NCBI GenBank assembly: GCA_012401045.1
Contig: GCA_012401045.1_4704.2
DNA: 64,000 nt
Strand: one strand, 5' to 3'
From: a phage
Shown here one piece after another: positions 1,189-62,693 of this stretch. The translations under genes and the position numbers were made by a program. The notes beneath the pieces are model-generated. The model was not told where the DNA came from, searched no databases, and saw only the letters and a program-made list of their open reading frames with translations. Numbering within the stretch: the first letter of the stretch is position 1; every line of letters starts with the position of its first letter.

Positions 1189-1712
1189 TAGTCGGCAAGC
1201 GGTTTTACCTTATTAATGGGCAACTGTACTTTACCGATGTTCTCTACATCCGCATCAGCGTAGAGAACAATTTTATCACCGTCTCTTTCCCAACGAATAA
1301 TGAATCGACCAGGAAGAAGATTACTCTGTTCAAGAGACGCAGTAACCTGTTGTGTTAAAACAGACAACCAAGCAGGCATCAGTGTTGCAACATCTAAGTC
1401 ATTTGACCATTCAGCGCGTTGCTCCACTGGACGTAACATACGTTCGACGGTGCGTTGAACTGTTGCGGTGATATAGCCTTTATCTTCGTCACTGATTGGA
1501 TCAGGACGAGACACAAAACGTTCAGCAGGCTTGTGGGTAATATATTCATGCAAATCGATGAGTGGTGTTGTCATAGTACTCGCTCCATCAGAATGTAATT
1601 GGGTAACCCGCAGGGTTGTCTGCATGCTATTCAGAAGCGCAAAAGCGCCATAAACAACAATGATACTAAGTACGACCAAAACAGAAATCATTAATGTGTA
1701 TTGCATTGTCAT
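1179..1712 (-). CDS. hypothetical membrane protein (177 aa, N-terminal TM helix)
   Basis: Hydrophobic N-terminal segment LMISVLVVLSIIVVYGAFALL followed by soluble domain. Confidence 0.45.
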   Translation of the reverse strand: MTMQYTLMISVLVVLSIIVVYGAFALLNSMQTTLRVTQLHSDGASTMTTPLIDLHEYITHKPAERFVSRPDPISDEDKGYITATVQRTVERMLRPVEQRAEWSNDLDVATLMPAWLSVLTQQVTASLEQSNLLPGRFIIRWERDGDKIVLYADADVENIGKVQLPINKVKPLADYWV

Positions 1713-1807
1713 CTCCTACTCACACGTATCTTGAAGATTAGTTAAAATCAACAAAAGAAAAAACAATATAAAGCAAGGTCCTCTGATATCAGAGGACCTC
1801 GGATCAA

Positions 1808-2464
1808 TTAGCTTGCAGCTTCTTCATTTGTATCAGGTTTGCTTCCCCCTAACAAACCGTCAAACAGACCCGTATGTTTCAGGTAGAAGAGAGCGATAGC
1901 GCCCATTGCTGCTGCGCTCGTCGCCGTTAACGCAACCCCGGCACGATACTGCCATTTACGGTCGGGCTTTTGATCAAGAGCCATACGACGCATGTATTCA
2001 GCCTCTGCTTCATTCCGATGAATTTCGGATTCAGCCAAGCGGGCTAAGGTATCGCGGTCAAGGTTATCATAACGTACGTTCATGGTGGTTTCCTCTTGTT
2101 TGGAAGTTGATTGCTTAGTGGATTCTTGGTCAACAGTCGTTTCAGATGGTTCAAACGGCTGGTTGTTCATTTTCTGATCTTTATTGGTCATGATAGACTC
2201 CTTCGATTTTTGAGACGAAATTGATTTAAACCATCGTGGATGGCGGTATTCAGTTTTACATGTGCAGTTAAGTTTCTCGTGCAGGAAAGCGTAAAAACGT
2301 TTTGCGCCTACACGTAAGGCTTTCAGCATTACCCATCCACGAGCACTCAAACGGTGTAGCTGTTGCGGTATGTCGAGTTTCCTAGCCAAGCGAAAGTATC
2401 TTTCAATCACTTCGATAGGAAACCATTGTTGTTCCACATCGGTGAGACTGAAAGTCTTATCCAT
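1808..2464 (-). CDS. hypothetical protein with C-terminal TM segment (218 aa)
   Basis: ATG at 2464; C-terminal hydrophobic stretch VALTATSAAAMGAIALFYL; conserved 24-bp promoter-like motif lies 24 nt upstream. Confidence 0.5.
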   Translation of the reverse strand: MDKTFSLTDVEQQWFPIEVIERYFRLARKLDIPQQLHRLSARGWVMLKALRVGAKRFYAFLHEKLNCTCKTEYRHPRWFKSISSQKSKESIMTNKDQKMNNQPFEPSETTVDQESTKQSTSKQEETTMNVRYDNLDRDTLARLAESEIHRNEAEAEYMRRMALDQKPDRKWQYRAGVALTATSAAAMGAIALFYLKHTGLFDGLLGGSKPDTNEEAAS

Positions 2465-2488
2465 GATTGAAATCTCGCTGGCTTACTT

Positions 2489-2512
2489 CACTTAGGTAAT
2501 ATAGCCGTGAAA
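2489..2512 (-). promoter_or_regulatory. conserved 24-bp promoter-like motif, copy 1 (minus-strand reading TTTCACGGCTATATTACCTAAGTG)
   Basis: Identical 24-mer also at 15021-15044; close variants at 43179-43202 and 51362-51385; each lies 25-140 nt upstream of a minus-strand gene start. Confidence 0.45.
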
Positions 2513-2614
2513 AATGTTGGATTAAGTTAAATACCGCAACCGCAGCTAATTTTATAGGCTTTTAGCCTAAACCAATCATCTTCGGAATCATCATCTTTGA
2601 AACAGGAATCTATC

Positions 2615-3436
2615 ATGGAAAAAGTATTTGTTTGTAAGTTGTTTACCAACGGCAATAGCCAACCAATGTATCTGACCGATCCTGTTCTAGGTAATCGGAA
2701 CAGTACCGTATTCAAAGAGGCTTTCGAATACGCTAAAAATAAAGCCGTGAGAACACTGACGTCTGATGACTGTATCAACGGTATCACGTGGGCAGAGTTA
2801 ATCGGTGATGCCGTTCGACACTTCGTTCGGGATGCGAGAAAACGGGAAATCTGTCTCACGACTATTGTTGTGCGTGAAAACGCAGAAATTTTATCAAACG
2901 TTTTGGTTGATTTTAATGACGTTTGCGTGTTTAATCCAGAGAACACGTTTGAACAATACCTTACTGCCCTGAACAACCAGCTCGGTAAAGATATTCATCC
3001 CGAATTCGCCAAGTTAACATATCAGTTACTTTTTGACGACGTCGATCCAAATACGAAGATCGATACCAGCTTATCGCCCCTGGTAAAGAAATACGGATCG
3101 GTTCTCGCTACGGCAACACCCACCACCGATGGCGGTTATGATATCGAATTGGATGGTCCATTAAAAGAACAAGAGCCTACTGGGGTTAGGGCGGTACATC
3201 ACAACCTCGTCGTTAAATCTGATGGATGCGATGAACATTACGCTATGATAAACGATGAAAACAATTACCGTTTAAGTCAAGCGATTGGTGTTCTACGCTA
3301 TACCGAACCCACTGTTGTAGACGATTATACATCGACAACAACGCACACCACGTGTTTCATTTTCATCTATCCCAATGAAAGTGTGTACATTACCGACTGC
3401 TATGGCAATACCGTAGATAGCTTACGTCGTTATTGA
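2615..3436 (+). CDS. hypothetical protein (273 aa)
   Basis: ORF track starts at TTG 2597; in-frame ATG at 2615 preceded by AGGAA SD at 6-nt spacing; followed by a clean intrinsic terminator. Confidence 0.55.
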   Translation: MEKVFVCKLFTNGNSQPMYLTDPVLGNRNSTVFKEAFEYAKNKAVRTLTSDDCINGITWAELIGDAVRHFVRDARKREICLTTIVVRENAEILSNVLVDFNDVCVFNPENTFEQYLTALNNQLGKDIHPEFAKLTYQLLFDDVDPNTKIDTSLSPLVKKYGSVLATATPTTDGGYDIELDGPLKEQEPTGVRAVHHNLVVKSDGCDEHYAMINDENNYRLSQAIGVLRYTEPTVVDDYTSTTTHTTCFIFIYPNESVYITDCYGNTVDSLRRY

Positions 3437-4081: not shown

Positions 4082-4085
4082 AAAC

Positions 4086-4117
4086 CATCCTCCCTTCCCT
4101 TACGGGTTGGGAGGATG
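4086..4117. terminator. conserved GC-rich hairpin family, copy between convergent genes
   Basis: CATCCTCCC-TTCCC-TTAC-GGGTT-GGGAGGATG; minus-strand reading has GTAA loop and is followed by GGTTTTT. Confidence 0.5.
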
Positions 4118-12513: not shown

Positions 12514-12957
12514 TTAGCAGTACGTGTCGTTCAACACGCGACTCACGTCTAAATGTTCTAGTTGATGTATAATGCCATCAGCAATGCGTTGTAGATAGGC
12601 TGTCTTATCCAATACCGAATCCGATGAAATCGCCCAGTAGGCTTCTGATACCCGATATTCGCTACCTTCACCGAGACTGACCTGATTAACCAGCTTCACA
12701 TCAGCGTATCTCGTCCCACGTTCAGCGTACCAGTAGATGTTTTCCAGTACGTCCTTTCCCGTTTGTGAAAACACAAACCAAAGCTTCACGTCTAAGCCGG
12801 ATACTTCGACAACAACGCAGCGAAGATGATTCTCCAAAGGCGCAAAAGAGGCTAAACGTTCCAGCGCGTTTTGCAGCGTGGGGTGATTAAGCTTTTCTAG
12901 ATCTTTAGCGGGTTGTTTAGATGATAGCGCGATCGATTTACAGAATTTGGTTTCCAC
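12514..12957 (-). CDS. hypothetical small protein (147 aa)
   Basis: GTG start with AGAGGAA SD; 20-bp palindrome 30 nt upstream. Confidence 0.4.
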   Translation of the reverse strand: METKFCKSIALSSKQPAKDLEKLNHPTLQNALERLASFAPLENHLRCVVVEVSGLDVKLWFVFSQTGKDVLENIYWYAERGTRYADVKLVNQVSLGEGSEYRVSEAYWAISSDSVLDKTAYLQRIADGIIHQLEHLDVSRVLNDTYC

Positions 12958-13859: not shown

Positions 13860-14159
13860 TTAAGGTTTAGGTTCCGTTTTGTGTTGTGCGAGTAGTGTGT
13901 TGATCTGCTCCCGTTGTTCTTTTAAGTATGCGGGAAGCTGGTCTTCCCGTACCGTTCCGATTTCCAACGTGATGTACCAGCGTTGTTCGGAAGCCTGCCA
14001 TTGAAAACCGCTCTGTAACCGTAGGATGCTAGGATCACGTACCTTGCTTGCGCTGTAACGGTTGAACCAATCCAGGTATTCTGCTTTCCCTTCCTCGTCG
14101 GCAACGTAACGCTGCACGCTGTTCTTGCCTTTGTTCTCGTATCCCGTTGCACGTATCAT
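13860..14159 (-). CDS. hypothetical small protein (about 99 aa)
   Basis: Start taken at internal ATG 14159, which forms an ATGA overlap with the stop of the upstream gene (track start 14213). Confidence 0.4.
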   Translation of the reverse strand: MIRATGYENKGKNSVQRYVADEEGKAEYLDWFNRYSASKVRDPSILRLQSGFQWQASEQRWYITLEIGTVREDQLPAYLKEQREQINTLLAQHKTEPKP

Positions 14160-14938
14160 GCGAACGTTTCTCCTGTAACGTGTTGTGGACGTTGTAGCAT
14201 GGTAGCATCCCATTGTACGATCCGGCTCCGGCTTACCAGCATCATGACGGATTCATCGTCAAGCCCTGGTTGCGCAACCGGCAACCAACGTTCGTTAAGC
14301 ACCTTCGCTTCAACGCGTTTCTTGCGGGGATTGTAACGCACCTCGCTAACCCAAGCGAACCCAAGTGGATGCACAACCCGCGGATAATACGTGCGAAGCA
14401 ATTGATGCATCCGATCTGTCACCTCCAAGCTCGCCTCCGCCATGTAAGGTTTCACCGTGGTAAGCTTTTTGGTGTAATACGTTCCAACGGTATGGTTACG
14501 CCAACTTGGCAAGGCATGATCCCCTTCTCTCAGTTTGCTATCCGAGTTCATCGGCCAGACCTGCTGTTTACCGGCCAGCATCGCGTACTGCCGATCAACG
14601 CAACGAACCTGATCGGCGAACAATGGATCCAGAACATCATCCACCGCACCCTTATTGCGATAACCGTGATGTACCACCAACCTGCTTGCGCTCATCGATG
14701 CGGGATGCTGGCTCTTATGCGCATACAGCCCTCCGTCACCGCGAGGGTCGTAAAGATAGCCGCATGCGCCACGCCATATCACCTTGCCTACGGTTCTCTC
14801 GTTTTCAAGCAGCATCGTCGGCCCATCAAGCAAATTGGTGAACCACTGCACCTTCACGCATTCCGCTTGGACATGCTCAGGTAATGCCTGATACTCTTTT
14901 TGGGTGTATAAGGTATCAAAAATGATTTCATCGTTCAT
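14156..14938 (-). CDS. hypothetical protein (260 aa)
   Basis: ATG with AGAGGA SD; first gene downstream of promoter-like motif copy 2. Confidence 0.5.
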   Translation of the reverse strand: MNDEIIFDTLYTQKEYQALPEHVQAECVKVQWFTNLLDGPTMLLENERTVGKVIWRGACGYLYDPRGDGGLYAHKSQHPASMSASRLVVHHGYRNKGAVDDVLDPLFADQVRCVDRQYAMLAGKQQVWPMNSDSKLREGDHALPSWRNHTVGTYYTKKLTTVKPYMAEASLEVTDRMHQLLRTYYPRVVHPLGFAWVSEVRYNPRKKRVEAKVLNERWLPVAQPGLDDESVMMLVSRSRIVQWDATMLQRPQHVTGETFA

Positions 14939-15020
14939 TTAAAAGATCCTCTGTTTTTCACGTTAATTAAACAACGTATTGATTTCTATTTGACAGAACA
15001 CGAACATTGTACGTATCTAT

Positions 15021-15044
15021 CACTTAGGTAATATAGCCGTGAAA
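15021..15044 (-). promoter_or_regulatory. conserved 24-bp promoter-like motif, copy 2
   Basis: Identical to copy at 2489-2512; about 80 nt upstream of the 14938 start. Confidence 0.45.
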
Positions 15045-15151
15045 GGATTTGTGTTACTGTAAGGGTTTTGTTTTTAAGAAGGGATGGATTTAGAAGAGGT
15101 GTTTCAAGGAAGGTAAACGAGGATAGGTATTTTGATTTAAGTAAGTAAGAT

Positions 15152-15249
15152 GTTATCTGTATTGTCTAAGTTATCTTGTTTATCTTAGGTTTAAGTTGTT
15201 TTTATTTATCTTGTTTGTATGTTTAAATTAGATCAATAAGCTTATCTTC
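15152..15249. repeat. iteron-like short direct repeats (five TTATCT-containing units) in AT-rich non-coding region
   Basis: GTTATCTGT, GTTATCTTGTT, TATCTTAGG, TTATCTTGTTTG, CTTATCTTC within about 100 bp. Confidence 0.35.
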
Positions 15250-15263
15250 AAAACAATGGATAA

Positions 15264-15311
15264 CATGTGTTTACTACGCTCGTTGAGTTATAACTCAACG
15301 GTAACACATGT
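15264..15311. repeat. nested inverted repeat (ACATGTGTT ... GTTGAGTTATAACTCAAC ... AACACATGT)
   Basis: 18-bp perfect palindrome flanked by 9-bp inverted arms, inside the gene-free region. Confidence 0.35.
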
Positions 15312-15719
15312 CATCTGTGCATTACACTCCGTTACATGCTAGTTAACAACGTTTTGTGAAGACAAAACGTTCAACTCAAAAAACATTTGTGATACTCTTC
15401 TTCACGTTGTTCATCAGAGTATCTCGTCTATACTCATTGCATTCGTATACGACATAACCGTTATACGCTAACGCTACGCTTATAGCTTGATAACTCTAAG
15501 GATAAAAACATAAACTCGCTTCGCTCGTTTAGTTTTTCTTTTTCTTAGAGTTATCCTGTTGCTCGTCTCTAAAGGACTTCGCTCCTCCCCCGTCCCCCGA
15601 AGGGGCCGAGGTCGTGGAAATTTTACTTTCCAAATACATTTACAACATCTGTAAACTTTTACTCCAGGTACTTAATCTTATCATTAGAAATTATAAAAGA
15701 GAATAAACACAAACATAAA

Positions 15720-15752
15720 CCTTCCTCCTTCCCTTACGGGTTGGAGGAAGGG
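15720..15752 (-). terminator. conserved GC-rich hairpin family copy downstream of the 15763-16656 gene
   Basis: Minus-strand reading CCTTCCTCC-AACCC-GTAA-GGGAA-GGAGGAAGG followed by TTTATGTTTG. Confidence 0.5.
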
Positions 15753-15762
15753 AGAGATTAAA

Positions 15763-16656
15763 TTATTCGGAAACGTTATAACCGAATACTGCTTTACCGT
15801 AGGTGTGGGTACCGTCGGTTAACGACACCACTAACACATTGCTGTACGTAGCGTTAACACCCTTGTCGGTAGACCCGGTGGTAACACCGTTATAGACAAA
15901 GGTAGCTGTTTGCAGATTGGTTTTCAGTTCATTGATGATATCATCACTCACACCGGTCTGCTCTTTGATCAGGGTAGTCAGGTTACCTGCCAGGCTTGCA
16001 TCGATCTTGGTTTCGTTACTGGTAATAGCTTGTAAACCTGCAGTGTAGGTGCTGAAGTCTAACGGATAGGTTAACAGACGTGCTGACGTTTTGGTACCAT
16101 CGCCTTCATCAACATAGGTTAAGTTACCCAGGTTGGTAACCTTGATGATGTTAGCCAGATCCAGCGTGGTGTTATAAACTTTAACTTGAACAGAGCCATA
16201 CCACGCCAACGAATCTTCTTTGGCTTCCAGGGTGATCGTCTGGATACCATGATCGTCGAAGGTAACAGGATTAGCTAACGTATCGGCTTTGATGTCTTTC
16301 GCTTTATCCAGGAACTTCTCACCGGAAGGCGTGATCATACCGTAGCGTTGAGCTACAAGGTCAACCACATCACCGATGGTGGTGTTAGCAGTAACGTTAA
16401 CACGTACGGCGATCTTCTGGAACCACTTAGCCAGATCCAGACGATGGTAGGTAACATCGCGTTCATTGAAGTAAGGGGTACCTTCACCAGGGCTAAGCGT
16501 TAAAGTTGCTTCTGGAGCAGAAGCGCTTTTGGATTTAAGAACGTATTTAAGATCACTGTATTGGAAGCTGGCACCAGTGTCGGCGTTGAGCTGGTTGATC
16601 TCATCAACGATAAGTTGCCAAGGTGTTTTTAAAGTAAGTGAAACTTGAGTTGCCAT
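15763..16656 (-). CDS. paralogous virion-type protein family member (297 aa)
   Basis: ATG with GAGGT SD; shares about 90-aa domain (Y-x-R-L-D-L ... YG[ML] ... LAW[YT]GSVQV) with ORFs at 16798, 27716, 29538 and 30400; codon usage biased. Confidence 0.55.
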   Translation of the reverse strand: MATQVSLTLKTPWQLIVDEINQLNADTGASFQYSDLKYVLKSKSASAPEATLTLSPGEGTPYFNERDVTYHRLDLAKWFQKIAVRVNVTANTTIGDVVDLVAQRYGMITPSGEKFLDKAKDIKADTLANPVTFDDHGIQTITLEAKEDSLAWYGSVQVKVYNTTLDLANIIKVTNLGNLTYVDEGDGTKTSARLLTYPLDFSTYTAGLQAITSNETKIDASLAGNLTTLIKEQTGVSDDIINELKTNLQTATFVYNGVTTGSTDKGVNATYSNVLVVSLTDGTHTYGKAVFGYNVSE

Positions 16657-16797
16657 TTTCTACCTCTATGGTTGTTACATCACTCTCAAAAGATGTAAGT
16701 GTTTACAGAAATAAGTATATTTTATATTAATGTAAATAATATGGAGAACGACTCCGAATCTCCTTTTCGACCATCAAAAATCAGAGGACACACAATC

Positions 16798-17340
16798 ATG
16801 GCCTTAGACTTTAACAAAGCAGCGAAATCCCTTCTGCTTGATCTTATTAACACCAAAGCGACCCGCACATTGGCTGAAGAAGAACTGCAGTTCGGTACTC
16901 CGGGGGCATCTTCCGAACATGAAAAGAACACCGTTATTCAGCTGGACGCTGCAGTTGGTGCAGAAAACCTGCAGGGTAGTCAGCAGTTCTACTACGATCG
17001 TCTGGCTCTGTCCGAAGTTTTCGCTGATGTAACCGGCGATGTTACTTTCGAACTGCCGCATGGCACTGACAGCATCCAGGCTTCTGAACTGGTAAGCAAG
17101 CTGGTCACCAAATTCGGCCTGGCTTCCCTGACCGGTGAAATCCAGGAAGAAACCTTCCAGCTGTCTGCAGGTACTGTTGGTCAGGTAACTCTGACTGCGA
17201 TCGAGGGCGGCCTGGTATATACCGGCACCCTGCAGGTTGCACTGACCTACGCAGCTGCACCGAAAGATGACCTGGCAACCGTTCTGGCGAATAACGTAGC
17301 TGAAGGCTTCGAGAAACCGACCGTTAGCGTTGTTGGCTAA
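16798..17340 (+). CDS. short highly expressed paralog of the same family (180 aa), candidate abundant virion protein
   Basis: ATG 16798 with GAGGA SD (track start 16699 lacks RBS); strongly optimised codon usage; two hairpins downstream. Confidence 0.55.
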   Translation: MALDFNKAAKSLLLDLINTKATRTLAEEELQFGTPGASSEHEKNTVIQLDAAVGAENLQGSQQFYYDRLALSEVFADVTGDVTFELPHGTDSIQASELVSKLVTKFGLASLTGEIQEETFQLSAGTVGQVTLTAIEGGLVYTGTLQVALTYAAAPKDDLATVLANNVAEGFEKPTVSVVG

Positions 17341-17539
17341 TAAGCACATAGAGCAATAGTATGGGTTTTGTACAGCTCGGCTATTGCTCTTCTACAATTT
17401 GGTTGTAACAATCTGCGTGGTTGCACGCTTATCTTTCTCATTGAGCGCTTCGTATGAAGCGTGGTGTTGAAAGGGTTGTGGATCTCCTCAAGCGGCCAGG
17501 GACCCAGACCAACCTGAATAAACACGAACACCTGTTAAG

Positions 17540-17571
17540 CCCCTCCTCATCCGTTATTGGGTGAGGAGGGG
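17540..17571 (+). terminator. GC-rich hairpin terminator (CCCCTCCTCA...TGAGGAGGGG) followed by TCTTATACGTCTTTATG
   Basis: 10-bp stem, 11-nt loop, T-rich tail, downstream of the 16798-17340 gene. Confidence 0.5.
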
Positions 17572-17634
17572 TCTTATACGTCTTTATGCGTTCCGTTCGT
17601 TCTGGAGCGTTTTAGAACGGTTTACGACAGGGTT

Positions 17635-20458: not shown

Positions 20459-23056
20459 TTATAACGTGACTGTACCTAATTTGGTTGTCTTATTGAGATT
20501 AATGACAGAGATCTGGGTATCGCTGGTCGTAATCGTTCCGATATTAACGCGCTGTCCTTTATCATCTTCTTGCTTGTAGATGGTTAACTCCAGTTCTAAC
20601 TGGTCGCCATTAGGAACAACGGAAACGTACCATGTTTTATTACCTGGTGAACTATTATAGTCTTTTAGGTTATAATGGCCTTTAGGTAAGGTCATGGCCT
20701 TACCGGCAAACAAACATGAAATGTCCTCGTTGATATAAACGTCGAAACCGGAAGAAGCGATGACTGTTGAGGCCATTATTCGAGACGCGACGATACCACG
20801 ATTATAGTCGTCGATTGTGGTACCTATGACATTGAATACTTGCCCCCCGTTACCCATAATGGTCGATTCGCTAGTGTTTACGTAGCCGATACCCCAAGTC
20901 GGATGAATGTTCCAGCGGTACCCACTGTTTTGTAAATACGTATACAAGTCTTCATAGGCCGCATTCACCCAACTACCATCACTTTTTCGTCCAGCCCTAA
21001 ATTGGAATGTGTTGCTATTTCCAGATGTTCCTCGGCCAAGAGGGACATGTCCCGCCACCAACCAACCATCTGTACTTTGCATATACGCGAACGAACCGTA
21101 CGCTCTGTTATCGGCCCAAATATTCACGGTATCAACACGTTCAACGTAGGCGATCACCTTTTGTACGCCGGTTATAGCGATTGAACCCTTGCGTGCCGAC
21201 ACATTAACTTCAGCAATTACGACACCCATTTTCCGCTGGCTGCTGTTAAATCCCAATACGACCATTAAACACGGTGCGTTTGTTGTTTCTGGAGGAATCG
21301 TTATCGATTGTTTCCAGTCGGTGATTCCGCTGAGTTTCGTTCCAGTATATGCGTTCCAGACGGTTTGTCCAGCCGATTTCAGATTCTGTTCAGAAATAGA
21401 AATGGCCTCGCCCTCAGGGATTAACGTGTCGTAATTGAGACCAATGTTGCTGGATAGACGAAGGTCGTTTAAGTAAGATCCGCTGAGTGTGACGTTACCG
21501 TTACGATAAATTGTCAAGAATGGCGCAGCCAGGGAGTTTAATACCGTAAAGTTACTCGATGGCATGAAACCATAGACATCGATGCCATTACCGTGGTAAT
21601 GGTAGTTTGTCCAACTACCTTGATAACTTACGGTACGTGCATCGTAGTGGCCTTGTCCAAGACCGCTGCTGGATAACGTGTATATCTTGGTTGCTGATAG
21701 AAATGCGAGATATCCATGCGCTGCCAGAGCTCCAACTACCCTGTCTTTTATCTTTAACCAAGCTGAAGTATACAACGTACTGTCGGGATTCATTTTGGCT
21801 ATTTCATCGTAAGCTGTGCCTGCGAAGTTTCCGATAGTGTACGTACGTATATCCGGCTGTCCGTTATTGTCGTTCTGTACAGCAATTACTTGCCCAGAAT
21901 CATTGATATCGATATTACCGATACAGTTGTGAGCCCCCCACACCCAATATCCATCTTTATAATTGGATTCTCCTTGTGTAAATGTCGACGGTCCTCGCCA
22001 CGCGATGCCGTTCGATTCGGCGTAGTAGGTAGCTTGTCCCGATCCTGGATTCATGGCGTATCTGTTATTGGTCGGGTCAAAATCGATGTAAAAATGATGC
22101 ATTCCTTGACGTTGACGGTTGTCCCGATCATTTGTCCACCACGACGAACCGACCAGAATTCGCGCCTTACCATTTTTTACAGTGGACCATAAACGTATTG
22201 CGGCGCGCCAGACGATTTGACCGATCCCGTTGGACGGGAAACTATTCGTACTGATGCTGTTGCAGACAACGAGCTCGCTGCTGTTGTTTATTTGAGTCCC
22301 TTCAATTGTAACGCCGTTTATGTTAGTAATCAGTGTTGCCGATACACTACCCCCTGTAGGGGCGATAGAGGAACGTTGAACGGTGTAAATTTTTAGTGAT
22401 AATTTATAGCCGCTCCGAATAGCTATACCAATGTAAATAGTTCCGTTAATTTCCCAACAACAAACATCGGGCATTGTTTCTTTGAAATCGGATAAAGCAC
22501 CGTCGATATACATCGCAACGTGTTTACTGGCGTCGAATGTGCCGTCCGTTAACGCGATGAACATTTTGGCATTATTACCGTTGATATCAGCCGCTAATCC
22601 GAGTAGTATGTTGTTCTGATGACAGTAGATGGCTTTAGGTGCTAGATCCAACATAGCTGGTTGGTACTGTCGGCTTGTTGGTATTACGCTAGTAACTGCA
22701 CCATTCTGATCCGTTTTACAAATAACGTAATATACACCGTGTATGATGCTGTTTGTCGCTGACCTCAGTAGGACGATCGTCCCGTCAGATTCACGACATA
22801 TACCGTAATGGCGATAGTCGGTGATTAAACCGATAGCGCCATCGGCCGAACCTTCGATTGCCAGAGGAAAATAACTTTGGTCCCCAACCTGTTCGATATC
22901 GGTTGCGCCAATATCGATGTATTTTTCCATCTCAGTGTTGAACTCAGCGGTACTGTAGGCACCGAGATCGCTCGCCTTTAGTCCCGTTGGGTTGTCACGA
23001 CTGGCGATACGCGTAGTAACGCTACTCACCAGTTCGCTGAACTTTTTCATTGTCAT
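20459..23056 (-). CDS. tail fibre or baseplate-associated protein (865 aa)
   Basis: Embedded in fibre module; N-terminus shares a SEL...DNP...A(A/S) motif with the two downstream small proteins. Confidence 0.5.
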   Translation of the reverse strand: MTMKKFSELVSSVTTRIASRDNPTGLKASDLGAYSTAEFNTEMEKYIDIGATDIEQVGDQSYFPLAIEGSADGAIGLITDYRHYGICRESDGTIVLLRSATNSIIHGVYYVICKTDQNGAVTSVIPTSRQYQPAMLDLAPKAIYCHQNNILLGLAADINGNNAKMFIALTDGTFDASKHVAMYIDGALSDFKETMPDVCCWEINGTIYIGIAIRSGYKLSLKIYTVQRSSIAPTGGSVSATLITNINGVTIEGTQINNSSELVVCNSISTNSFPSNGIGQIVWRAAIRLWSTVKNGKARILVGSSWWTNDRDNRQRQGMHHFYIDFDPTNNRYAMNPGSGQATYYAESNGIAWRGPSTFTQGESNYKDGYWVWGAHNCIGNIDINDSGQVIAVQNDNNGQPDIRTYTIGNFAGTAYDEIAKMNPDSTLYTSAWLKIKDRVVGALAAHGYLAFLSATKIYTLSSSGLGQGHYDARTVSYQGSWTNYHYHGNGIDVYGFMPSSNFTVLNSLAAPFLTIYRNGNVTLSGSYLNDLRLSSNIGLNYDTLIPEGEAISISEQNLKSAGQTVWNAYTGTKLSGITDWKQSITIPPETTNAPCLMVVLGFNSSQRKMGVVIAEVNVSARKGSIAITGVQKVIAYVERVDTVNIWADNRAYGSFAYMQSTDGWLVAGHVPLGRGTSGNSNTFQFRAGRKSDGSWVNAAYEDLYTYLQNSGYRWNIHPTWGIGYVNTSESTIMGNGGQVFNVIGTTIDDYNRGIVASRIMASTVIASSGFDVYINEDISCLFAGKAMTLPKGHYNLKDYNSSPGNKTWYVSVVPNGDQLELELTIYKQEDDKGQRVNIGTITTSDTQISVINLNKTTKLGTVTL

Positions 23057-27674: not shown

Positions 27675-27706
27675 CCCTCCTCCAACCCGTAAGGGAAGGA
27701 GGAGGG
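27675..27706. terminator. conserved GC-rich hairpin family copy (CCCTCCTCC-AACCC-GTAA-GGGAA-GGAGGAGGG)
   Basis: Between convergent genes; GNRA-type GTAA loop closed by CCC/GGG. Confidence 0.5.
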
Positions 27707-27715
27707 AATATGCTG

Positions 27716-28621
27716 TTATGCTACATATAACGTCAGATAACCGTCGATGAGCGTATTCATCACACTGAGTTGAAGTACGACAGCTTTACTAACATCTGTA
27801 CGTACACCGAACGGTAGTGTTTTGAATTGCTCTGGATCGGCTATTACTTGCGCATTCTGCAAGTTGAGCGGTCCAGGCATTGCTGACAATACCCAGCGAT
27901 CGTTGACCATAAGGCCGTCGATCTCTTCAGAGAGACCCAATTGCAGTGCGTTCATTTCTGCGATTAGTGCCTCCGATTGCGTATCGCCTGAGGTTAGCGT
28001 ATACCCATCGGTAAGCGATGCCAGAACACCAGCAGATACGAACCAGTTGTACGAAACAATAGCGCCTGGGAGTTTACTGCTATCTCGATCGATGATATAA
28101 TTCAACCCAGCCAACATATTGTTGCGAATGAGGTTGTTGAGGTCGTTATGTCCTGAAGTTAACTCAACAAGTAATTGACCAACCCATACTTGGTTACCAG
28201 GTTTAGGTGTTATCGCAACATGTATCGGTGATTTGGATTTATCCAGATCCGCGTCGACGATCTCGGTTTTATTGAGAAGGATACCGTACGTTGATGCTAA
28301 GACAGGTAATATCTCAGAGACCTTGGTTAGTGTATCTAAGGTTTCGATCTCGATGGGCCAGCGGTGCTGTCCACCAGGCCAAATACCCAGTTTACCAAGA
28401 TCGACGCGGTTATAATAGATGTCGACAGAGTTCACCAGCCCCGAACCCGGTTGGGGATGCACGGTTAACTTGCTGTTACGCTTGTACCCTGTGCTTTCAG
28501 AAGCCTCACCGATAACCAGTTTATCCAGCGTTACGCCTCGAGCATCGAAATCGCTATGCTTTCGAATCAGCCGAAAGAGGATTTCTTTCGATTCTAACCC
28601 TAGGATTTCACTGTACTCCAT
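27716..28621 (-). CDS. paralogous virion-type protein family member (301 aa)
   Basis: Contains the IYYNRVDLGKL ... STYGILL family domain. Confidence 0.5.
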   Translation of the reverse strand: MEYSEILGLESKEILFRLIRKHSDFDARGVTLDKLVIGEASESTGYKRNSKLTVHPQPGSGLVNSVDIYYNRVDLGKLGIWPGGQHRWPIEIETLDTLTKVSEILPVLASTYGILLNKTEIVDADLDKSKSPIHVAITPKPGNQVWVGQLLVELTSGHNDLNNLIRNNMLAGLNYIIDRDSSKLPGAIVSYNWFVSAGVLASLTDGYTLTSGDTQSEALIAEMNALQLGLSEEIDGLMVNDRWVLSAMPGPLNLQNAQVIADPEQFKTLPFGVRTDVSKAVVLQLSVMNTLIDGYLTLYVA

Positions 28622-28636
28622 TTAACACCCCTTAGG

Positions 28637-29521
28637 TTACGGTAGGATTTCTGCGCCCGTCGGGCCTGCCTTACGAGCTTCCAACGCACCAAGGTCGTAT
28701 TTCAACGTCAGCGTATCGTTGGTGGTAAATAGGTTGTGGTAAGTCGAAATCAGGTCGGTAACCTGCGCACCGACGATTTCGTTCATGTCGAAGGCAGAAC
28801 CTTGACCATCATCAGCACGAACGATTTTGTCACCAGCGGAGACCATCCCAATTTCAGAAATAACCGCGTACTCTTCACCACCTTCGGTGAGTTTAGCTAC
28901 ATTGAGGTATTCGTTAATATCCCATGGTGTCCAAACCAAAGAGACTTTACAGCTATAATCGTAATACTCCCCGGTCGCCACCAGAATTCCTGTTGTTGGA
29001 ATATCCGGTCGAGGTGGGTTGAGGTTCTTGTCGGTCGGATGCCATTCGATAGTCTGAGCAACACCATCGATGTACTTGGTATATCGCGTGGAGCGGACAA
29101 CGTTATCGAAATCGATGCGACGACCGTAATAACAGATGTATTTTTTACCGTTTTCCAGCGTCTCAATACGACGTAACCCAAATCTAGCACGTTCGTCCGT
29201 GGTCAAATCGTTACCAACTTCACGCATCACGAAAGGTTTGATTTTCCATGGTGAAAGATCGCTTGCTTCGTGAGCGATCGGCATCGAGGAAGGGATGCCG
29301 TTAGCGTTGCGGATGAATTCGTGACCTTGGTTGCCGATACAGAAGTAACGTACAGCAGGATTACCGTCGGGGTAAATCTTTGATTGAATCTGAAGCTTTT
29401 CGTTCAAGGTGCTGTGTTCTTCCCACGCATGAGGAAGACCGAGCGTAAGGTTCGTTTGTACTTGACCGCCGATAATCGTACGGACGATACGATCGGTAGC
29501 ACGGATTTGTGTAGAAGCCAT
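28637..29521 (-). CDS. hypothetical protein (294 aa)
   Basis: ORF between family paralogs. Confidence 0.5.
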   Translation of the reverse strand: MASTQIRATDRIVRTIIGGQVQTNLTLGLPHAWEEHSTLNEKLQIQSKIYPDGNPAVRYFCIGNQGHEFIRNANGIPSSMPIAHEASDLSPWKIKPFVMREVGNDLTTDERARFGLRRIETLENGKKYICYYGRRIDFDNVVRSTRYTKYIDGVAQTIEWHPTDKNLNPPRPDIPTTGILVATGEYYDYSCKVSLVWTPWDINEYLNVAKLTEGGEEYAVISEIGMVSAGDKIVRADDGQGSAFDMNEIVGAQVTDLISTYHNLFTTNDTLTLKYDLGALEARKAGPTGAEILP

Positions 29522-29537: not shown

Positions 29538-30389
29538 TCAGTTATATTGCATCAACAGGATACCGCCGTAGTTCGTGCAGTAATCTTGGCTAAGCGTAAC
29601 GATAACAGCGTTAGCGAACGCGGGGTTAACAGGATAACCCTGTGCGATAAGTTCTGTTGTTTTACCGGTTGCGAGTACGGTAGACCCGTAAAGGTTGTTT
29701 TCGTCTTCACGGCCGTTATAAACCCATGGGGTTGGTGCAACGTTGTTGAATAAGCTAACCATTGCGCTTAGGTTACCACCAACCTTTAACCCGGCAAGAT
29801 CGGAACGGATTGCTGTGCAGTCTATAGCGTAACTGTAGACCAACGCTTGGATACGATTTGCGGTGTAGTACGGGAAATTGAGACCGGTCATCACCGTGGT
29901 CTTCATCATCCCCGCAATATCGTGGGCACTATCGAGAAGATAGAACGTAACGCTCCCCGTCCAAGCCAATCCAGTTGTTTTCAATTCTACGGTGTGTGGG
30001 AACGGATATTCATCGCCTCGTACAATCGGAGAATCGACGCAGCTATCCTGATCGATAACGATACCGTACGTTGATTGAATCAGAGGGATAAGATCGTGTG
30101 TCGTTTTAACCCCGGCATCGATAGCAAGCTTCGGTTCCATCCCCAAGAAGAAGTCTTGGATAGGGATACGATCGTACCACACGTAGCTGCTTTCACGGTA
30201 TTGTGCTGGTGTTACTGTTGCCGAAGGCGATACTTTCGCGCGGGTGTTCCGTTTATACGCATGGTTTCCGTTTTCAGCAACATCCGTGATATCAAGTGCA
30301 TCGAAGTTAAAGTCGAAGTCAGGATTGGCTGCCTGAATAAGTTCAGCGACCAGTACTTTAGGACTTTTGTTTAACAATTTCTGACTCAT
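29538..30389 (-). CDS. paralogous virion-type protein family member (283 aa)
   Basis: Contains YVWYDRIPIQDF ... STYGIVI ... GLAWTGSVTF family domain. Confidence 0.5.
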   Translation of the reverse strand: MSQKLLNKSPKVLVAELIQAANPDFDFNFDALDITDVAENGNHAYKRNTRAKVSPSATVTPAQYRESSYVWYDRIPIQDFFLGMEPKLAIDAGVKTTHDLIPLIQSTYGIVIDQDSCVDSPIVRGDEYPFPHTVELKTTGLAWTGSVTFYLLDSAHDIAGMMKTTVMTGLNFPYYTANRIQALVYSYAIDCTAIRSDLAGLKVGGNLSAMVSLFNNVAPTPWVYNGREDENNLYGSTVLATGKTTELIAQGYPVNPAFANAVIVTLSQDYCTNYGGILLMQYN

Positions 30390-30399
30390 TGTTTATTCC

Positions 30400-31335
30400 T
30401 TAGCCTTGTTCTTCTGGAGAACGACCCTGGAGGCTTGCGGTATGTCCGTCGACGTTGTAATAGAAAATCAATGGACCGCCAACGGCAGTACAGTAGTTTT
30501 CATCCAGACTGATCTCGATACCGTATTGGTAACCTGCTCTTGCTGGAATACGTCCGCCTAACTCACCGTTGAAAGCCACTTTAGCATTATACAGGTTATA
30601 CGGTGCGACATTGTCGTCTAATACCCAACGATCGGTAGTCATTTCAGCCAGAAGATCGGCAACCACCACATCGCTAATAACTGTACCTGTTACCAGCGAA
30701 GCCAGCAGTTCACCGTAATCAGAGGTATCACGACTGTAACTGTAAATCTCACCGCTAGCGCGTACGCCTTGACCAAAGAACTTAAGACCATCCAGCTCCT
30801 TGATCGCGATAATATCATCAAGATTCGGTACACGCGACTTCATCAAGATACGAACGCTCCCCGTCCAAGCCAGGCAGTTAGATGCGACACGAAGCAATTG
30901 TCCGTTAACAGTATCCCAGTTAAGTTCGTCGTTGACGATTTCTTCCGCGGTAAGACCAAGACCGAAACGTTCTTTGATGATAGGCCAGATATCACGCATC
31001 TTGGCGGCGTCTGGCGCATCGATAAGAATAGGCGCTACGTTACGCAGATACGCACCGATGTTAATACGGTCGTAATACAGTGTCGTCGAACCTTCGTAAT
31101 CGTCTAACTCGGTAAGCTTAGCGGTTGCTGTCGCCGTAATCTGGGTGTCGCGCTCATAGGCGCTTTGGTTGGTGGTTGGTGTTCCTAAAACCAATAATTC
31201 AGGGGTTAGGATATGCTCTCCGTTCTGAGGTGGGTTATCGTGGTTGATAAGACCATACACGAGATCGGATGAGGGTAAAGAGACGTCGACCGGGTAAAGT
31301 TCGGTGTCGTCAATAGTTGTTACCGTATCACTCAC
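30400..31335 (-). CDS. paralogous virion-type protein family member (311 aa)
   Basis: Contains LYYDRINIGAYL ... ERFGLGL ... CLAWTGSVRI family domain; GTG start with GAGGAGG SD. Confidence 0.5.
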   Translation of the reverse strand: MSDTVTTIDDTELYPVDVSLPSSDLVYGLINHDNPPQNGEHILTPELLVLGTPTTNQSAYERDTQITATATAKLTELDDYEGSTTLYYDRINIGAYLRNVAPILIDAPDAAKMRDIWPIIKERFGLGLTAEEIVNDELNWDTVNGQLLRVASNCLAWTGSVRILMKSRVPNLDDIIAIKELDGLKFFGQGVRASGEIYSYSRDTSDYGELLASLVTGTVISDVVVADLLAEMTTDRWVLDDNVAPYNLYNAKVAFNGELGGRIPARAGYQYGIEISLDENYCTAVGGPLIFYYNVDGHTASLQGRSPEEQG

Positions 31336-31394: not shown

Positions 31395-33875
31395 TTAAAC
31401 GTCCTCGATAGGCAAAGGTTTAACAATCAAACGATTGAGCGGATTCGATAGACGCATACTGATAGGCTTATACGCAACATGATTCGTCTCACTTAGAGCC
31501 ACTGATCTGAAACGACCGTTCAACTGTTTGTAAATCGGTTCTATCCAGAGACCTCGAAGATCACGTTTACGGAAACGTTGTTCGAACGGTTTGATTGGGG
31601 TTACGGTTAACCCACGCAACGACTCTGACGGTAAACGCTCACGAAGGTCGCGTGGTGCCCGACCTGGGAACGGTGCAAGCCACAAACCATCGAGCGGATT
31701 TTTACGGAAACGCAACGAGACAGGATCGCTAATGACTTGTGCCCAATATTGCGTACTGAATCGAACCGTTTGGGTATTCTCGTAACCGCTACAATCACAC
31801 CAGGTTGGTTTCGGAGGCGCTTCCAAACTTTCAACCGCTGATTCACGCCAGTTCGTCATCGGGTTGTTATCATGCACGAATTTGATAACTTCCGTAGCCT
31901 GGTTATCCGTATCATGAACGTTTGCCTGTGCCCAGTCTTCCCACAGTTCTTCACTACCACTTACTAAACTCGAACCGAGACGAACGGCGATTTTGTTTAG
32001 TGGTTTGATTGGGTCACTGTTGATTGTCTGGATAAAATGGATGGTGTAACTGCTCAATGTCTTAAGCAGCTGCAGCATTCCGTATTGAATATCCTTAAGA
32101 CTGGTGACATCTTCCAAATCCTGGCCGGTGGCCTTTGTGAAGATATCGAGAGCCAGAATACCCGCCTCTTCTTGACTGATTGCGTCAAGCTCCCAATCCA
32201 TCGATAAGAACCATTCCTTGTAAAGCTGTCCAATACCGAAGTCGACACCAACATCCATGTAGAAGTTTTCAACGATGGCTTCAGCCATGCCTCGAGCTTG
32301 ATAATGTTCTTGGAGCTGATACATGAACTGATGACGACGCCAGCCCTGGTAGATCTCGGTAACGGCGCTCAGAAACTCTTCAGTACTGACGACAGCACGC
32401 AGCGTCACTTGCTTATCCAAACACCACCAGATCAGTTTATCGGGAATGATAGCAGGATCGGTAATGCTACGGAGATGGTCGAATGTCGGTAGCGTTAACA
32501 CCCTGACGTGGTTAGCATGGATCTTAGGTACTTCAATCAGCGTCATGCCCATCGAATAGTTCAGCAAATACAAGAACAGCTTGTAGGCATCTTTCATCGA
32601 CATCGTCATGGTATCACCCGTCACCGGGTTGGTTGTCGTTAACCGTGACTGATACATGCCTATTGCGCTAAGATGAATCCATTCATTCAGCAGGAAATCA
32701 TACTTAGGATACAATTCACTGTCTGTAAGGTCTTCGGCTTCACTTTCCAACACCTTGGTCGTTAAGGTATTGTTGTCATGCATCGACATTTTCTCTATCG
32801 TGCGGTTAAGCTCGGTATAATACTCCGCTTCGTTATCCCGCGCTAGAGGGAACTGTTGCTGCATCACGGTGGTGACCTTACGTCTTACCGTGCCATTACC
32901 GACGATCTCTTGAAGGTTAAGCGGTTTACGCTCCATGTAAACTGCGGGTTTTAACGTCTGGGGTATCTCGGAAGCGTCTTGTTTGATCGAGAACGCACCG
33001 ATTGGAATCCCACGATCGGTTAATACCTTTTGAATGAGCTTATCGTAGTTTTCCGTTCTGCCCATGTTTCTTTCAACGTAAGCGATGTTACGATAGAACC
33101 AGAGCATTTGGGATTCGGTCATGTACCGCTTGAATCGATCAAGGCCTTGATGGCTTGCCAGATAACTCCAGATATGGAAGCTATGGGCATAATGGGTATG
33201 ACAGTTTTCCCAACGAATACCTTTTATCATCTCAGGTATTTGTGTGAATAGGATGGCGTATAGCGCAGGCCAATGAAGCATATCGACGCTCTCGTATGCC
33301 GGATGTTCCCAGCGTCTGAAGTAATCGTCGATTTCTTGCTGTAAACGTGGAATAAGATTGGCCTCGCGTGACTCAACCTCTTGTCTATCGTACCAGAGAA
33401 TCTCATGATTGCGTGCCGCAATTGCTTTCTCGATATCGATGGGGTTAAGGATACCCAAGATCAACATACGTTGTTCCGGGTACCGCGCAATTAAACGATT
33501 GAAATAATCTCCGCCATACGCGTATTCCCTTGCCGTCATGCGATGCCGTAACATGTTTTCCTTGGTGAACTCGATCTCTTCGAGCGTATCCAGGGAATTT
33601 ACGGTCATCATTGTCTGACAAGGATGATACTCGCCAGCGAGATTCATGTAGTATAACCACGTGCGTGGGTCGTCCCCGACGGCCATCTGGTAGACTTCGG
33701 AAACCTTGAGGTTTAACCGTTCTGCCGTGATGTCGCTTTTAATAATCAGGGTGTCCGTTAGACGCTGCACGCTTTCCGAATAAAGCTGATAGTCAGTGTT
33801 GGACACGATCGGTCCTCCAAGGAGCCAGTGTAAATGAACGATATAAATAAAGGGCGCGTCGCCCTCGAACGTCAA
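31395..33875 (-). CDS. large hypothetical protein (about 803-826 aa) with C-terminal RFRK...GLW repeats
   Basis: Track start is TTG at 33875; a GTG at 33806 with GGAGGA SD is the more likely start; internal repeat RFRKNPLDGLWLAPFP / RFRKRDLRGLWIEPIY. Confidence 0.5.
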   Translation of the reverse strand: MTFEGDAPFIYIVHLHWLLGGPIVSNTDYQLYSESVQRLTDTLIIKSDITAERLNLKVSEVYQMAVGDDPRTWLYYMNLAGEYHPCQTMMTVNSLDTLEEIEFTKENMLRHRMTAREYAYGGDYFNRLIARYPEQRMLILGILNPIDIEKAIAARNHEILWYDRQEVESREANLIPRLQQEIDDYFRRWEHPAYESVDMLHWPALYAILFTQIPEMIKGIRWENCHTHYAHSFHIWSYLASHQGLDRFKRYMTESQMLWFYRNIAYVERNMGRTENYDKLIQKVLTDRGIPIGAFSIKQDASEIPQTLKPAVYMERKPLNLQEIVGNGTVRRKVTTVMQQQFPLARDNEAEYYTELNRTIEKMSMHDNNTLTTKVLESEAEDLTDSELYPKYDFLLNEWIHLSAIGMYQSRLTTTNPVTGDTMTMSMKDAYKLFLYLLNYSMGMTLIEVPKIHANHVRVLTLPTFDHLRSITDPAIIPDKLIWWCLDKQVTLRAVVSTEEFLSAVTEIYQGWRRHQFMYQLQEHYQARGMAEAIVENFYMDVGVDFGIGQLYKEWFLSMDWELDAISQEEAGILALDIFTKATGQDLEDVTSLKDIQYGMLQLLKTLSSYTIHFIQTINSDPIKPLNKIAVRLGSSLVSGSEELWEDWAQANVHDTDNQATEVIKFVHDNNPMTNWRESAVESLEAPPKPTWCDCSGYENTQTVRFSTQYWAQVISDPVSLRFRKNPLDGLWLAPFPGRAPRDLRERLPSESLRGLTVTPIKPFEQRFRKRDLRGLWIEPIYKQLNGRFRSVALSETNHVAYKPISMRLSNPLNRLIVKPLPIEDV

Positions 33876-48037: not shown

Positions 48038-48069
48038 CCCTCCTCCAACCCGTAAGGGAAGGAGGAAGG
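48038..48069. terminator. conserved GC-rich hairpin family copy, flanked by A13/T13 homopolymer
   Basis: CCCTCCTCC-AACCC-GTAA-GGGAA-GGAGGAAGG; preceded by 13 A at about 48012-48026. Confidence 0.5.
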
Positions 48070-48085
48070 TTTATGACCGCTTTGA

Positions 48086-51306: not shown

Positions 51307-51361
51307 GATTGTATCCTCGGTTATTAAGAGAATTTACAACGATAACAGTAACCGCTGTTAT

Positions 51362-51385
51362 CACCTAGGTAATGTAGTCGCGAAA
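51362..51385 (-). promoter_or_regulatory. conserved 24-bp promoter-like motif, copy 4 (variant TTTCGCGACTACATTACCTAGGTG)
   Basis: About 55 nt upstream of the 51306 start, immediately downstream of a family hairpin. Confidence 0.4.
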
Positions 51386-62545: not shown

Positions 62546-62652
62546 TTGGGACTCCTACGTAGGAAAATCTTGGCGGGTGATCATGTCCGCCATTTACCTT
62601 CTGAACCGTTGATTCAGAAGTCAAAAGATAACCGGATACCAACGCCATAAAC

Positions 62653-62684
62653 CTTCCTCCAACCCAACAGGGAAGGAGGAAGGG
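62653..62684 (-). terminator. conserved GC-rich hairpin family copy (loop variant AACA)
   Basis: CCTTCCTCC-AACCC-AACA-GGGAA-GGAGGAAGG; minus strand followed by TTTATGGCG. Confidence 0.5.
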
Positions 62685-62693
62685 ATATGGTGA

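Follow-up and report, generated by a model that had tools for sequence, protein, structure and literature searches.

We analysed a 64,000-nucleotide stretch of phage DNA (NCBI GenBank assembly GCA_012401045.1, contig GCA_012401045.1_4704.2), here called the window, that encodes five paralogous proteins of the Pfam family DUF7941. When positions 15500-17600 were searched against a phage collection, the sole match was Escherichia phage vB_EcoM_Goslar, with 93.3% nucleotide identity across the whole region. Goslar is a nucleus-forming jumbo phage of 237 kb and belongs to the Chimalliviridae. Gene order, strands and spacing in the window correspond one-to-one to the Goslar annotation, with window coordinates about 63-71 lower. 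The five paralogs are the orthologs of Goslar gp22, gp23, gp31, gp33 and gp34 (89.2, 89.4, 97.7, 97.9 and 97.7% amino acid identity, respectively), and we use the Goslar names for them.

The DUF7941 genes and their baseplate neighbours

The five genes and two neighbouring genes are as follows (scores are Pfam bits; models are from AlphaFold2, AF2, with the predicted local distance difference test, pLDDT, as confidence measure).

15763-16656, minus strand: gp22 ortholog, long DUF7941 form, 297 amino acids (174 bits; AF2 pLDDT 89.6)
16798-17340, plus strand: gp23 ortholog, short DUF7941 form without the C-terminal domain, 180 amino acids (76 bits)
27716-28621, minus strand: gp31 ortholog, long DUF7941 form, 301 amino acids (187 bits), with the lowest expression of the five as judged by codon usage
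28637-29521, minus strand: gp32 ortholog, spoke filament protein, not a paralog (DUF7208, 318 bits)
29538-30389, minus strand: gp33 ortholog, long DUF7941 form, 283 amino acids (161 bits)
30400-31335, minus strand: gp34 ortholog, long DUF7941 form, 311 amino acids, with a GTG start as in the Goslar annotation (214 bits)
31395-33806, minus strand: gp35 ortholog (99.3% identical to the Goslar protein), assigned to the upper wedge of the baseplate

The five paralogous reading frames lie exactly at the coordinates and on the strands that a first-pass annotation, made from the letters alone, had given, and the paralogy it had proposed is borne out. All five proteins match PF25613 (DUF7941) with 76 to 214 bits, where the curated gathering cutoff is 27 bits, and all match PHROG 1037/2935, 'virion structural protein'. 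In Smith-Waterman comparisons against 300 residue shuffles, eight of the ten pairs scored z = 9-27. The pairs gp23-gp22 (z 1.9) and gp23-gp33 (z 1.5) were not significant. Membership of gp23 therefore depends on its links to gp31 and gp34 and on the family profile. A profile of the five sequences revealed no sixth paralog among all window reading frames of at least 60 amino acids (next E > 0.9). An April 2026 preprint by Basu et al. lists ten DUF7941 members for Goslar, and the other five (gp86, gp91-93 and gp161) lie outside the window (bioRxiv 10.64898/2026.04.21.720040).

The motifs quoted at first pass were approximately right. In the alignment of the five proteins they appear as Y[YH][DNH]R..[LI], as [YF]G[LIM], and as LAW[TY]GSV, LVYTGTL or QVWVGQL. 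The shared domain had been put at roughly 90 amino acids, which is too short. The AF2 models (pLDDT about 90) predict a common module consisting of an alpha/beta N-terminal domain of about 150 amino acids followed by a conserved linker or tail of about 25 amino acids, and the Pfam alignment spans gp23 positions 4-174. In gp22 the N-terminal domain occupies residues ~10-163, the linker ~164-190 and the C-terminal domain ~190-297, whereas gp23 consists of the N-terminal domain (1-151) and the conserved tail (152-180). Linker and tail carry the motif DL..I/V....L.GL/GF. The gp23 stretch DLATVLANNVAEGF, together with tail 152-180, is a candidate polymerisation element.

Four proteins are indeed long forms that add a C-terminal domain, of about 105 amino acids. 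It had been called an extra domain, but it is itself part of the Pfam DUF7941 model, and its similarity is only partly significant in pairwise tests. The domain of gp34 resembles those of gp33, gp31 and gp22 (z 13, 8 and 7, respectively), gp22-gp33 is weak (4.4), and gp22-gp31 and gp31-gp33 are not significant (z 1.5 each).

The five-sequence profile matched phiKZ gp127 in the PDB (E 2e-16), and the fold of the N-terminal domain is that of phiKZ gp127 (PDB 9XQD). A single-sequence PDB search with gp34 gave no match, and fold comparison of the models with the PDB gave nothing beyond phiKZ gp127 and no known decoration fold (Hoc/Soc-like). The PF12699 inner-body and ejection proteins did not match at E <= 0.1; the models are alpha/beta and not helical bundles. 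Among Pfam and PHROG families, no tail fibre or tailspike family was matched, only DUF7941 and the 'virion structural protein' PHROGs; fibre-like repeats are carried instead by the neighbouring genes gp25 and gp29.

Three of the long forms are encoded among baseplate genes. In the Goslar structure gp35 is assigned to the upper wedge and gp32 builds the baseplate spokes. The gene for gp32, a homolog of phiKZ gp139, has gp31 as its neighbour on one side and gp33 and gp34 on the other. Additionally, gp34 is the next gene downstream of the one for the wedge protein gp35, which mirrors the position of phiKZ gp127 after gp128 (phiKZ order gp128-gp127-gp126).

Expression signals at the gp22/gp23 pair

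The remaining two genes, gp22 and gp23, are transcribed away from each other, and the following features surround them.

16657-16797: divergent control region between gp22 and gp23, 141 bp, 68% AT against 53% for the window, with blocks conserved in diverged Goslar-like phages
16739-16775, plus strand: TATG with the conserved leader GGAGAACGACTCCGAATCTCCTTTTCGACCATC, invariant in the window, Goslar and the contigs L002, L003 and L004
15720-15751, minus strand: hairpin CCTTCCTCC..CCC/GGG..GGAGGAAGG, likely a terminator, an inverted repeat directly after the gp22 stop
17540-17571: GC-rich hairpin CCCCTCCTCA...GTGAGGAGGGG, likely a shared terminator between the convergent gp23 and endolysin genes, where Goslar has an annotated terminator

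Thus, the divergent pair facing each other across an AT-rich spacer of about 140 bp is as first described. So is the short member with strongly optimised codons. We ranked 56 window reading frames by codon adaptation index (CAI), using E. coli relative-adaptiveness weights (Sharp & Li 1987). The gp23 gene ranked first of the 56, with a CAI of 0.67 and an effective number of codons of 33.8 (mean CAI of window reading frames 0.30, sd 0.067). It was followed among the paralogs by gp22 (0.457, rank 3), gp34 (0.34), gp33 (0.32) and gp31 (0.228, rank 54). The first-pass annotation had named virion mass spectrometry as a check, and published label-free data for Goslar find all five orthologs in virions, with gp23 the most abundant: about 2144 copies of gp23 (range 1428-3368), 577 of gp22, 112 of gp33, 27 of gp34 and 8.5 of gp31 (bioRxiv 10.64898/2026.04.21.720040). 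The CAI order follows these copy numbers with a Spearman rho of 0.9. Codon adaptation alone thus predicted the measured abundance ranking, and the claim that the short member is highly expressed is correct.

Upstream of gp23, aligning the window to Goslar and to three Goslar-like contigs of greater divergence revealed an invariant block, TATGG.GAA.GACTCCGA.TCTCCT.TTCGA.CATC, which follows an AT-rich stretch. The ribosome-binding site AGAGGA lies at 16783-16788. In phiKZ, late promoters need TATG as their core, with its G as position +1, and are read by the non-virion RNA polymerase (PMC4666361). No TATG occurs on the gp22 side of the 141-bp spacer. A scan for sigma-70-like promoters found none in the spacer, and its overall number of sites did not exceed chance. 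We considered that the gp23 leader might form a stabilising 5' hairpin and rejected this, as its folding energy was no better than that of shuffled sequences (z +0.4 to -0.8). Its sequence conservation is therefore what distinguishes it.

The hairpin after gp22 belongs to a family of near-identical GC-rich copies at gene ends (~4082-4115, 15720-15751, 27675-27712, 48038-48075 and 62652-62704). The copy downstream of gp31 is an annotated terminator in Goslar. Between phages the symmetric internal loop of the family varies, TT/TT versus AA/AA.

On the strand opposite gp23, a reading frame of 181 amino acids (16804-17349, minus strand) spans the entire gene and has no homology support. It is most simply explained as a by-product of the extreme codon bias of gp23.

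A separate 18-nt motif, GCTATATTACCTAAGTGA, occurs three times on the minus strand, at 2488-2505, 15020-15037 and 51361-51378 (two exact copies; 0.03 expected). Each copy lies upstream of a gene start, and neither gp22 nor gp23 has one. We take its core, TATATTAC, to resemble the early-promoter consensus of phiKZ.

Downstream of gp22, the 824-nt unannotated gap between gp21 and gp22 (14939-15762) holds a noncoding stretch of about 460 nt (~15235-15705). In the window, Goslar, L002, L004, L005 and L006 it hardly varies, whereas the proteins encoded on either side share only 42-83% identity; L008 and L009, which are more distant, do not have it. The stretch has no reading frame longer than 36 amino acids, and searches for Rfam families (E <= 1), tRNA and tmRNA gave no match. 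Many hairpins follow one another along it, among them GATAACTCTAAG...CTTAGAGTTATC and AACGTTTTGT-loop-ACAAAACGTT, the loop of the latter being inverted in L004, and its RNA folding z is -6.7 on the plus strand and -5.7 on the minus strand. Ahead of it lies an AT-rich part with repeats of TTATCTT, and cumulative GC skew reaches its local minimum here. The stretch may represent a structured noncoding RNA or an origin-like DNA element.

Distribution and divergence of the family

An exhaustive profile search found 2302 clusters (50% identity) at E <= 1e-3 and 896 at 1e-10. Separate N- and C-domain profiles were then used for an architecture census of the best ~156 representatives. An N-C architecture was found in 108 of them and an N-terminal domain alone, as in gp23, in 17 (167-193 amino acids); seven joined an N-terminal domain to an unrelated C-terminal extension. 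Thirteen had two N-terminal domains in tandem and five had three, in each case with extensions in two proteins. Such covalent arrays are what gene fusion would yield from a polymer built like beads on a string. Long members were also found fused to Laminin_G_3 (a ConA-like lectin), Ig_2, He_PIG and SPRY domains. The modular variation predicted at first pass is thus real.

Whether the family is exclusive to chimalliviruses was searched within phage collections. A tblastn search of an annotated collection gave 124 matching records; among the matches listed, every record was 210-305 kb long, with at most eight places per record. All named structural matches in BFVD were to phiKZ-like phages. The Pfam family Spiralin (PF05215) was matched by four of the 17 short forms (best E 5.7e-8; residues 27-68 in SPN3US gp160), and DUF7941 has been reported in Spaid-like and other Spiroplasma proteins (PMC13375240). 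These matches argue against strict exclusivity. As judged by sequence, distant homology or transfer between the phage N-terminal module and the spiralin domain of Spiroplasma surface proteins is possible.

The divergent long/short pair beside a GH108 endolysin gene recurs in L002, L003 and L004, where gp23 is only about 50% identical, and in the more distant lineage of L008, where gp22 is 52% identical. The pair is also kept in L009, a short contig without the endolysin gene. In phiKZ (gp143, 177 amino acids) and SPN3US (gp160, 175 amino acids), too, a short form adjoins the endolysin gene or lies close to it.

The gp22 and gp23 proteins diverge faster than their neighbours. Identity to Goslar is 89% for both, against 97-99% for the endolysin, the fibre proteins and gp31-35. 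Between clades gp23 is 50-54% and gp22 76-83% identical, against 88-95% for endolysin and fibre proteins (in L002 and L004, 50-54% for gp23 and 91% for the endolysin). Within gp23 the divergence between clades is uneven: residues 1-35 are 78% identical, the tail (152-180) 68% and residues 76-135 only 21%. This pattern fits conserved polymerisation interfaces around a variable exposed face.

Some variants of gp22 were also seen. In several gp22 proteins of 205-207 amino acids (P0095-P0098), from Goslar-like assemblies that include ~240-kb contigs, residues ~77-168 are missing through a deletion that keeps the frame and fuses two LDLA motifs, which have the 14-nt direct repeat CTGGATCTGGCTAA in common. 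In the contig of P0107 the antisense strand of gp23 is fused to the 3' part of gp22, and gene callers translated the antisense frame. These are either real variants, which would imply that the core of gp22 is dispensable, or assembly artefacts.

Elsewhere in the window, divergence from Goslar is mosaic. The genes at 20459-23056, 14156-14938 and 12514-12957 (all minus strand) are 65, 61 and 63% identical, while adjacent genes are 97-100% identical. The first encodes a protein of 865 amino acids between two fibre-like genes and looks like a swapped host-range cassette.

Assembly and attachment on the virion

DUF7941 proteins have been found in the virions of three phages, Goslar, SPN3US and phiKZ, and Goslar gp23 was covered to 90% by peptides. 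Few components of chimallivirus virions are more abundant: gp22 and gp23 together reach about 2,700 copies in Goslar. Recombinant Goslar gp22 forms filaments in negative-stain electron microscopy, and AlphaFold3 (AF3) models of head-to-tail dimers place the linker of one protomer on the N-terminal domain of the next (bioRxiv 10.64898/2026.04.21.720040). The same preprint describes members fused to carbohydrate-binding modules, glycoside hydrolases and leucine-rich repeats (gp86, gp92 and gp161) and proposes a 'DUF7941 fibre cloud' at the peripheral baseplate that functions in host recognition. The paper on the isolation of Goslar gives no morphological description of fibres.

Evidence for a baseplate location comes from phiKZ. 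In each of the six lobes of its star-shaped baseplate, a band built from five gp139 dimers 'terminates at gp127', and gp127 was modelled at the outer periphery, one per lobe (PMC13250141). The Goslar preprint fitted gp126-gp127 into phiKZ density there that had not been explained (bioRxiv 10.64898/2026.04.21.720040). About 8 copies of gp31 per Goslar virion are compatible with 6-12 sites.

Evidence of another kind exists for SPN3US, in which 'Paralog family B' was defined in 2017 with 20 members (gps 83, 138-154, 161 and 237) and in which two members, gp141 (32.6 kDa) and gp160 (18.5 kDa), are highly abundant at more than 300 copies each (PMC5694885). We found that SPN3US gp138-145, gp151, gp154 and gp160 match Pfam DUF7941, and gp33 and gp34 match SPN3US gp138-143 in phmmer searches (E 1e-15 to 3e-21). 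These results confirm that DUF7941 is paralog family B of SPN3US. In a follow-up of 2023, heads from an amber mutant of the tail tube, 255(am107), were taken through two CsCl gradients (step and buoyant-density), and the normalised head-to-wild-type ratios of peptide-spectrum matches were 1.06-1.67 for family B, the abundant gp141 and gp160 among them (PMC10052503, Table S2). These ratios could not be told apart from those of the major capsid protein (1.39) and the portal (1.40), and the ratio was 0.004-0.03 for sheath, tube and fibre proteins; gp237, at 0.06, was the only member of the 2017 list that behaved like a tail protein (PMC10052503). Head association was seen in two independent tailless mutants, the ratios of family B to capsid protein were reproducible with coefficients of variation of a few percent, and family-B proteins are absent from the nine substrates of the prohead protease.

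The two published data sets disagree. The SPN3US data point to the head or neck, and the work on phiKZ and Goslar points to the baseplate; one member is in the baseplate (phiKZ gp127) and the bulk of the family is with heads (SPN3US). The Goslar preprint nowhere mentions SPN3US or tailless particles. A division of the family by orthology into head and baseplate classes failed. Although phiKZ gp127 is closest to gp22, the head-associated members of SPN3US are closest to gp33 and gp34, which are encoded in the baseplate module.

Based on these observations, we propose a model in which the five proteins are parts of an external, self-polymerising filament system of the virion that functions in adhesion or host encounter. 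We consider this model probable as a whole. In nucleus-forming jumbo phages (Chimalliviridae), DUF7941 proteins would be non-enzymatic filament subunits that the virion carries. In the AF3 models, docking of the linker on the N-terminal domain of the next subunit would give head-to-tail chains. The mass-produced chain unit would be gp23, with its own TATG late-type promoter and near-optimal E. coli codons, and gp22 would be the second bulk unit. The low-copy proteins gp31, gp33 and gp34 most likely serve as anchors or adaptors at the outer periphery of the baseplate, like phiKZ gp127 at the end of the gp139 band. Given that other members end in lectin, immunoglobulin (Ig), leucine-rich repeat or glycosidase tips, the polymer most likely serves as a flexible adhesion array on the outside of the virion and not as a catalytic or DNA-associated component. 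We favour the external location because of these adhesin-type fusions, the lack of prohead-protease processing and the hypervariable surface segment.

The model builds on the homology, fold, expression bias and synteny that we observed in the window. Virion presence, copy numbers and gp22 filaments come from the literature on Goslar proteins that are 89-98% identical, and presumably hold for the window phage. Linker docking, the external location and the adhesive role are what we infer from both. Several points weigh against the model: DUF7941 density is absent from the Goslar capsid and baseplate maps (bioRxiv 10.64898/2026.04.21.720040); pairwise similarity between the two putative bulk units, gp22 and gp23, is not significant; and the docking mechanism is that of the preprint's AF3 models. 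In addition, retention on SPN3US heads contradicts a polymer anchored purely at the baseplate and leaves an internal location possible. The first-pass suggestion of a virion accessory family with modular variants agrees with the model, but its alternative term, decoration, is not supported in the sense of an ordered protein of the capsid lattice.

It is possible, and we advance it tentatively, that the head or neck, and not the baseplate, is where the bulk polymer formed by gp22 and gp23 is attached. Chimalliviruses would then carry a micron-scale adhesive coat of fibres on the capsid, and only the low-copy gp31, gp33 and gp34 would be in the baseplate, like phiKZ gp127. If true, the model recently put forward for Goslar would fall, and the data on tailless SPN3US heads would be accounted for.

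Three alternatives to our model were weighed. In the first, the proposal of the Goslar preprint taken at its word, essentially all DUF7941 proteins, at least about 2500 subunits, would form six micron-long filaments that are anchored only at the peripheral baseplate and make the first contact with the host. The position of phiKZ gp127 at the outer baseplate periphery, the gp126-gp127 fit, the genes for gp31, gp33 and gp34 in the baseplate module and the gp22 filaments formed in vitro are all in keeping with such an arrangement. Nevertheless, tailless SPN3US heads keep all of family B at head-like stoichiometry, against a 20- to 200-fold loss of baseplate and fibre proteins, and the head-associated members are the ones nearest to the supposed baseplate proteins gp33 and gp34. 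Moreover, only one gp127 is seen per phiKZ lobe, and the Goslar baseplate map lacks DUF7941 density. Because of the SPN3US data, we regard this arrangement as unlikely.

Less likely again is an internal location, in which gp22 and gp23 would be packaged in the head with the DNA and ejected, as the tentative label 'Head ejection?' of the SPN3US authors would have it, and filaments would form only in vitro. The head association in both tailless mutants suits such a role, as do very high copy numbers similar to those of the internal PF12699 proteins and invisibility in symmetrised maps. Against this, the fusions to lectin, Ig, SPRY, leucine-rich repeat and glycosidase domains are typical of external adhesins, and one member has been located experimentally in the baseplate. 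Family B is not among the nine SPN3US prohead-protease substrates, and 90% of Goslar gp23 is covered by peptides. Finally, divergence is rapid and patchy with a hypervariable surface segment, and there is no similarity to PF12699.

We think it very improbable that the proteins are cytoplasmic filaments (for example, a scaffold for assembly or particle bundling) that become entangled with virions and co-purify, as gp22 polymerising alone, the lack of ordered density on virions and the in-frame gp22 deletions in ~240-kb assemblies, which suggest dispensability, might indicate, because SPN3US ratios to capsid protein stay constant through step and buoyant-density CsCl gradients, because members are found in the virions of three phages and because phiKZ gp127 is built into a cryo-electron microscopy map.

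The family itself is already known, as Pfam DUF7941, as family B of SPN3US (2017 and 2023) and, since 2026, through the phiKZ atlas and the preprint on Goslar. What we add is the link between DUF7941 and family B, with the contradiction between head and baseplate that it exposes, the agreement between CAI and copy number, the conservation of the long/short/endolysin layout across genera and the architecture census. An external adhesive array, if confirmed, would have a bearing on adsorption kinetics, on host range and on how jumbo phages that are considered for therapy behave.

Among known systems, the Goslar proteins show no functional difference from those of the window, which come from a different Goslar-like phage (93% nucleotide identity) and are another ortholog set with nothing new beyond that. 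Family B of SPN3US is alike in having one abundant long form of about 32 kDa (gp141) and a short form of about 18.5 kDa (gp160) near the endolysin gene. It differs in that about 20 members lie mostly in one tandem array, compared with five in the window and ten in Goslar, and in having been assigned experimentally to the head. In phiKZ there are three members, gp127 (PDB 9XQD chain 0; PMC13250141), gp126 and gp143, which are only 16-18% identical to the window proteins; only the N-terminal domain of one gp127 copy per baseplate lobe has been modelled experimentally.

Compared with appendages of other phages, DUF7941 proteins bear a functional analogy to T4 Hoc and head fibres, with which we found no relationship in fold or sequence. 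T4 Hoc and phage head fibres are non-essential, surface-exposed and fast-evolving, are often tipped with Ig or lectin domains, and are thought to raise the rate of encounter with hosts or surfaces. Whereas appendages of the T4 Hoc type bind one-to-one to the capsid lattice, DUF7941 proteins are predicted by the models to polymerise head-to-tail.

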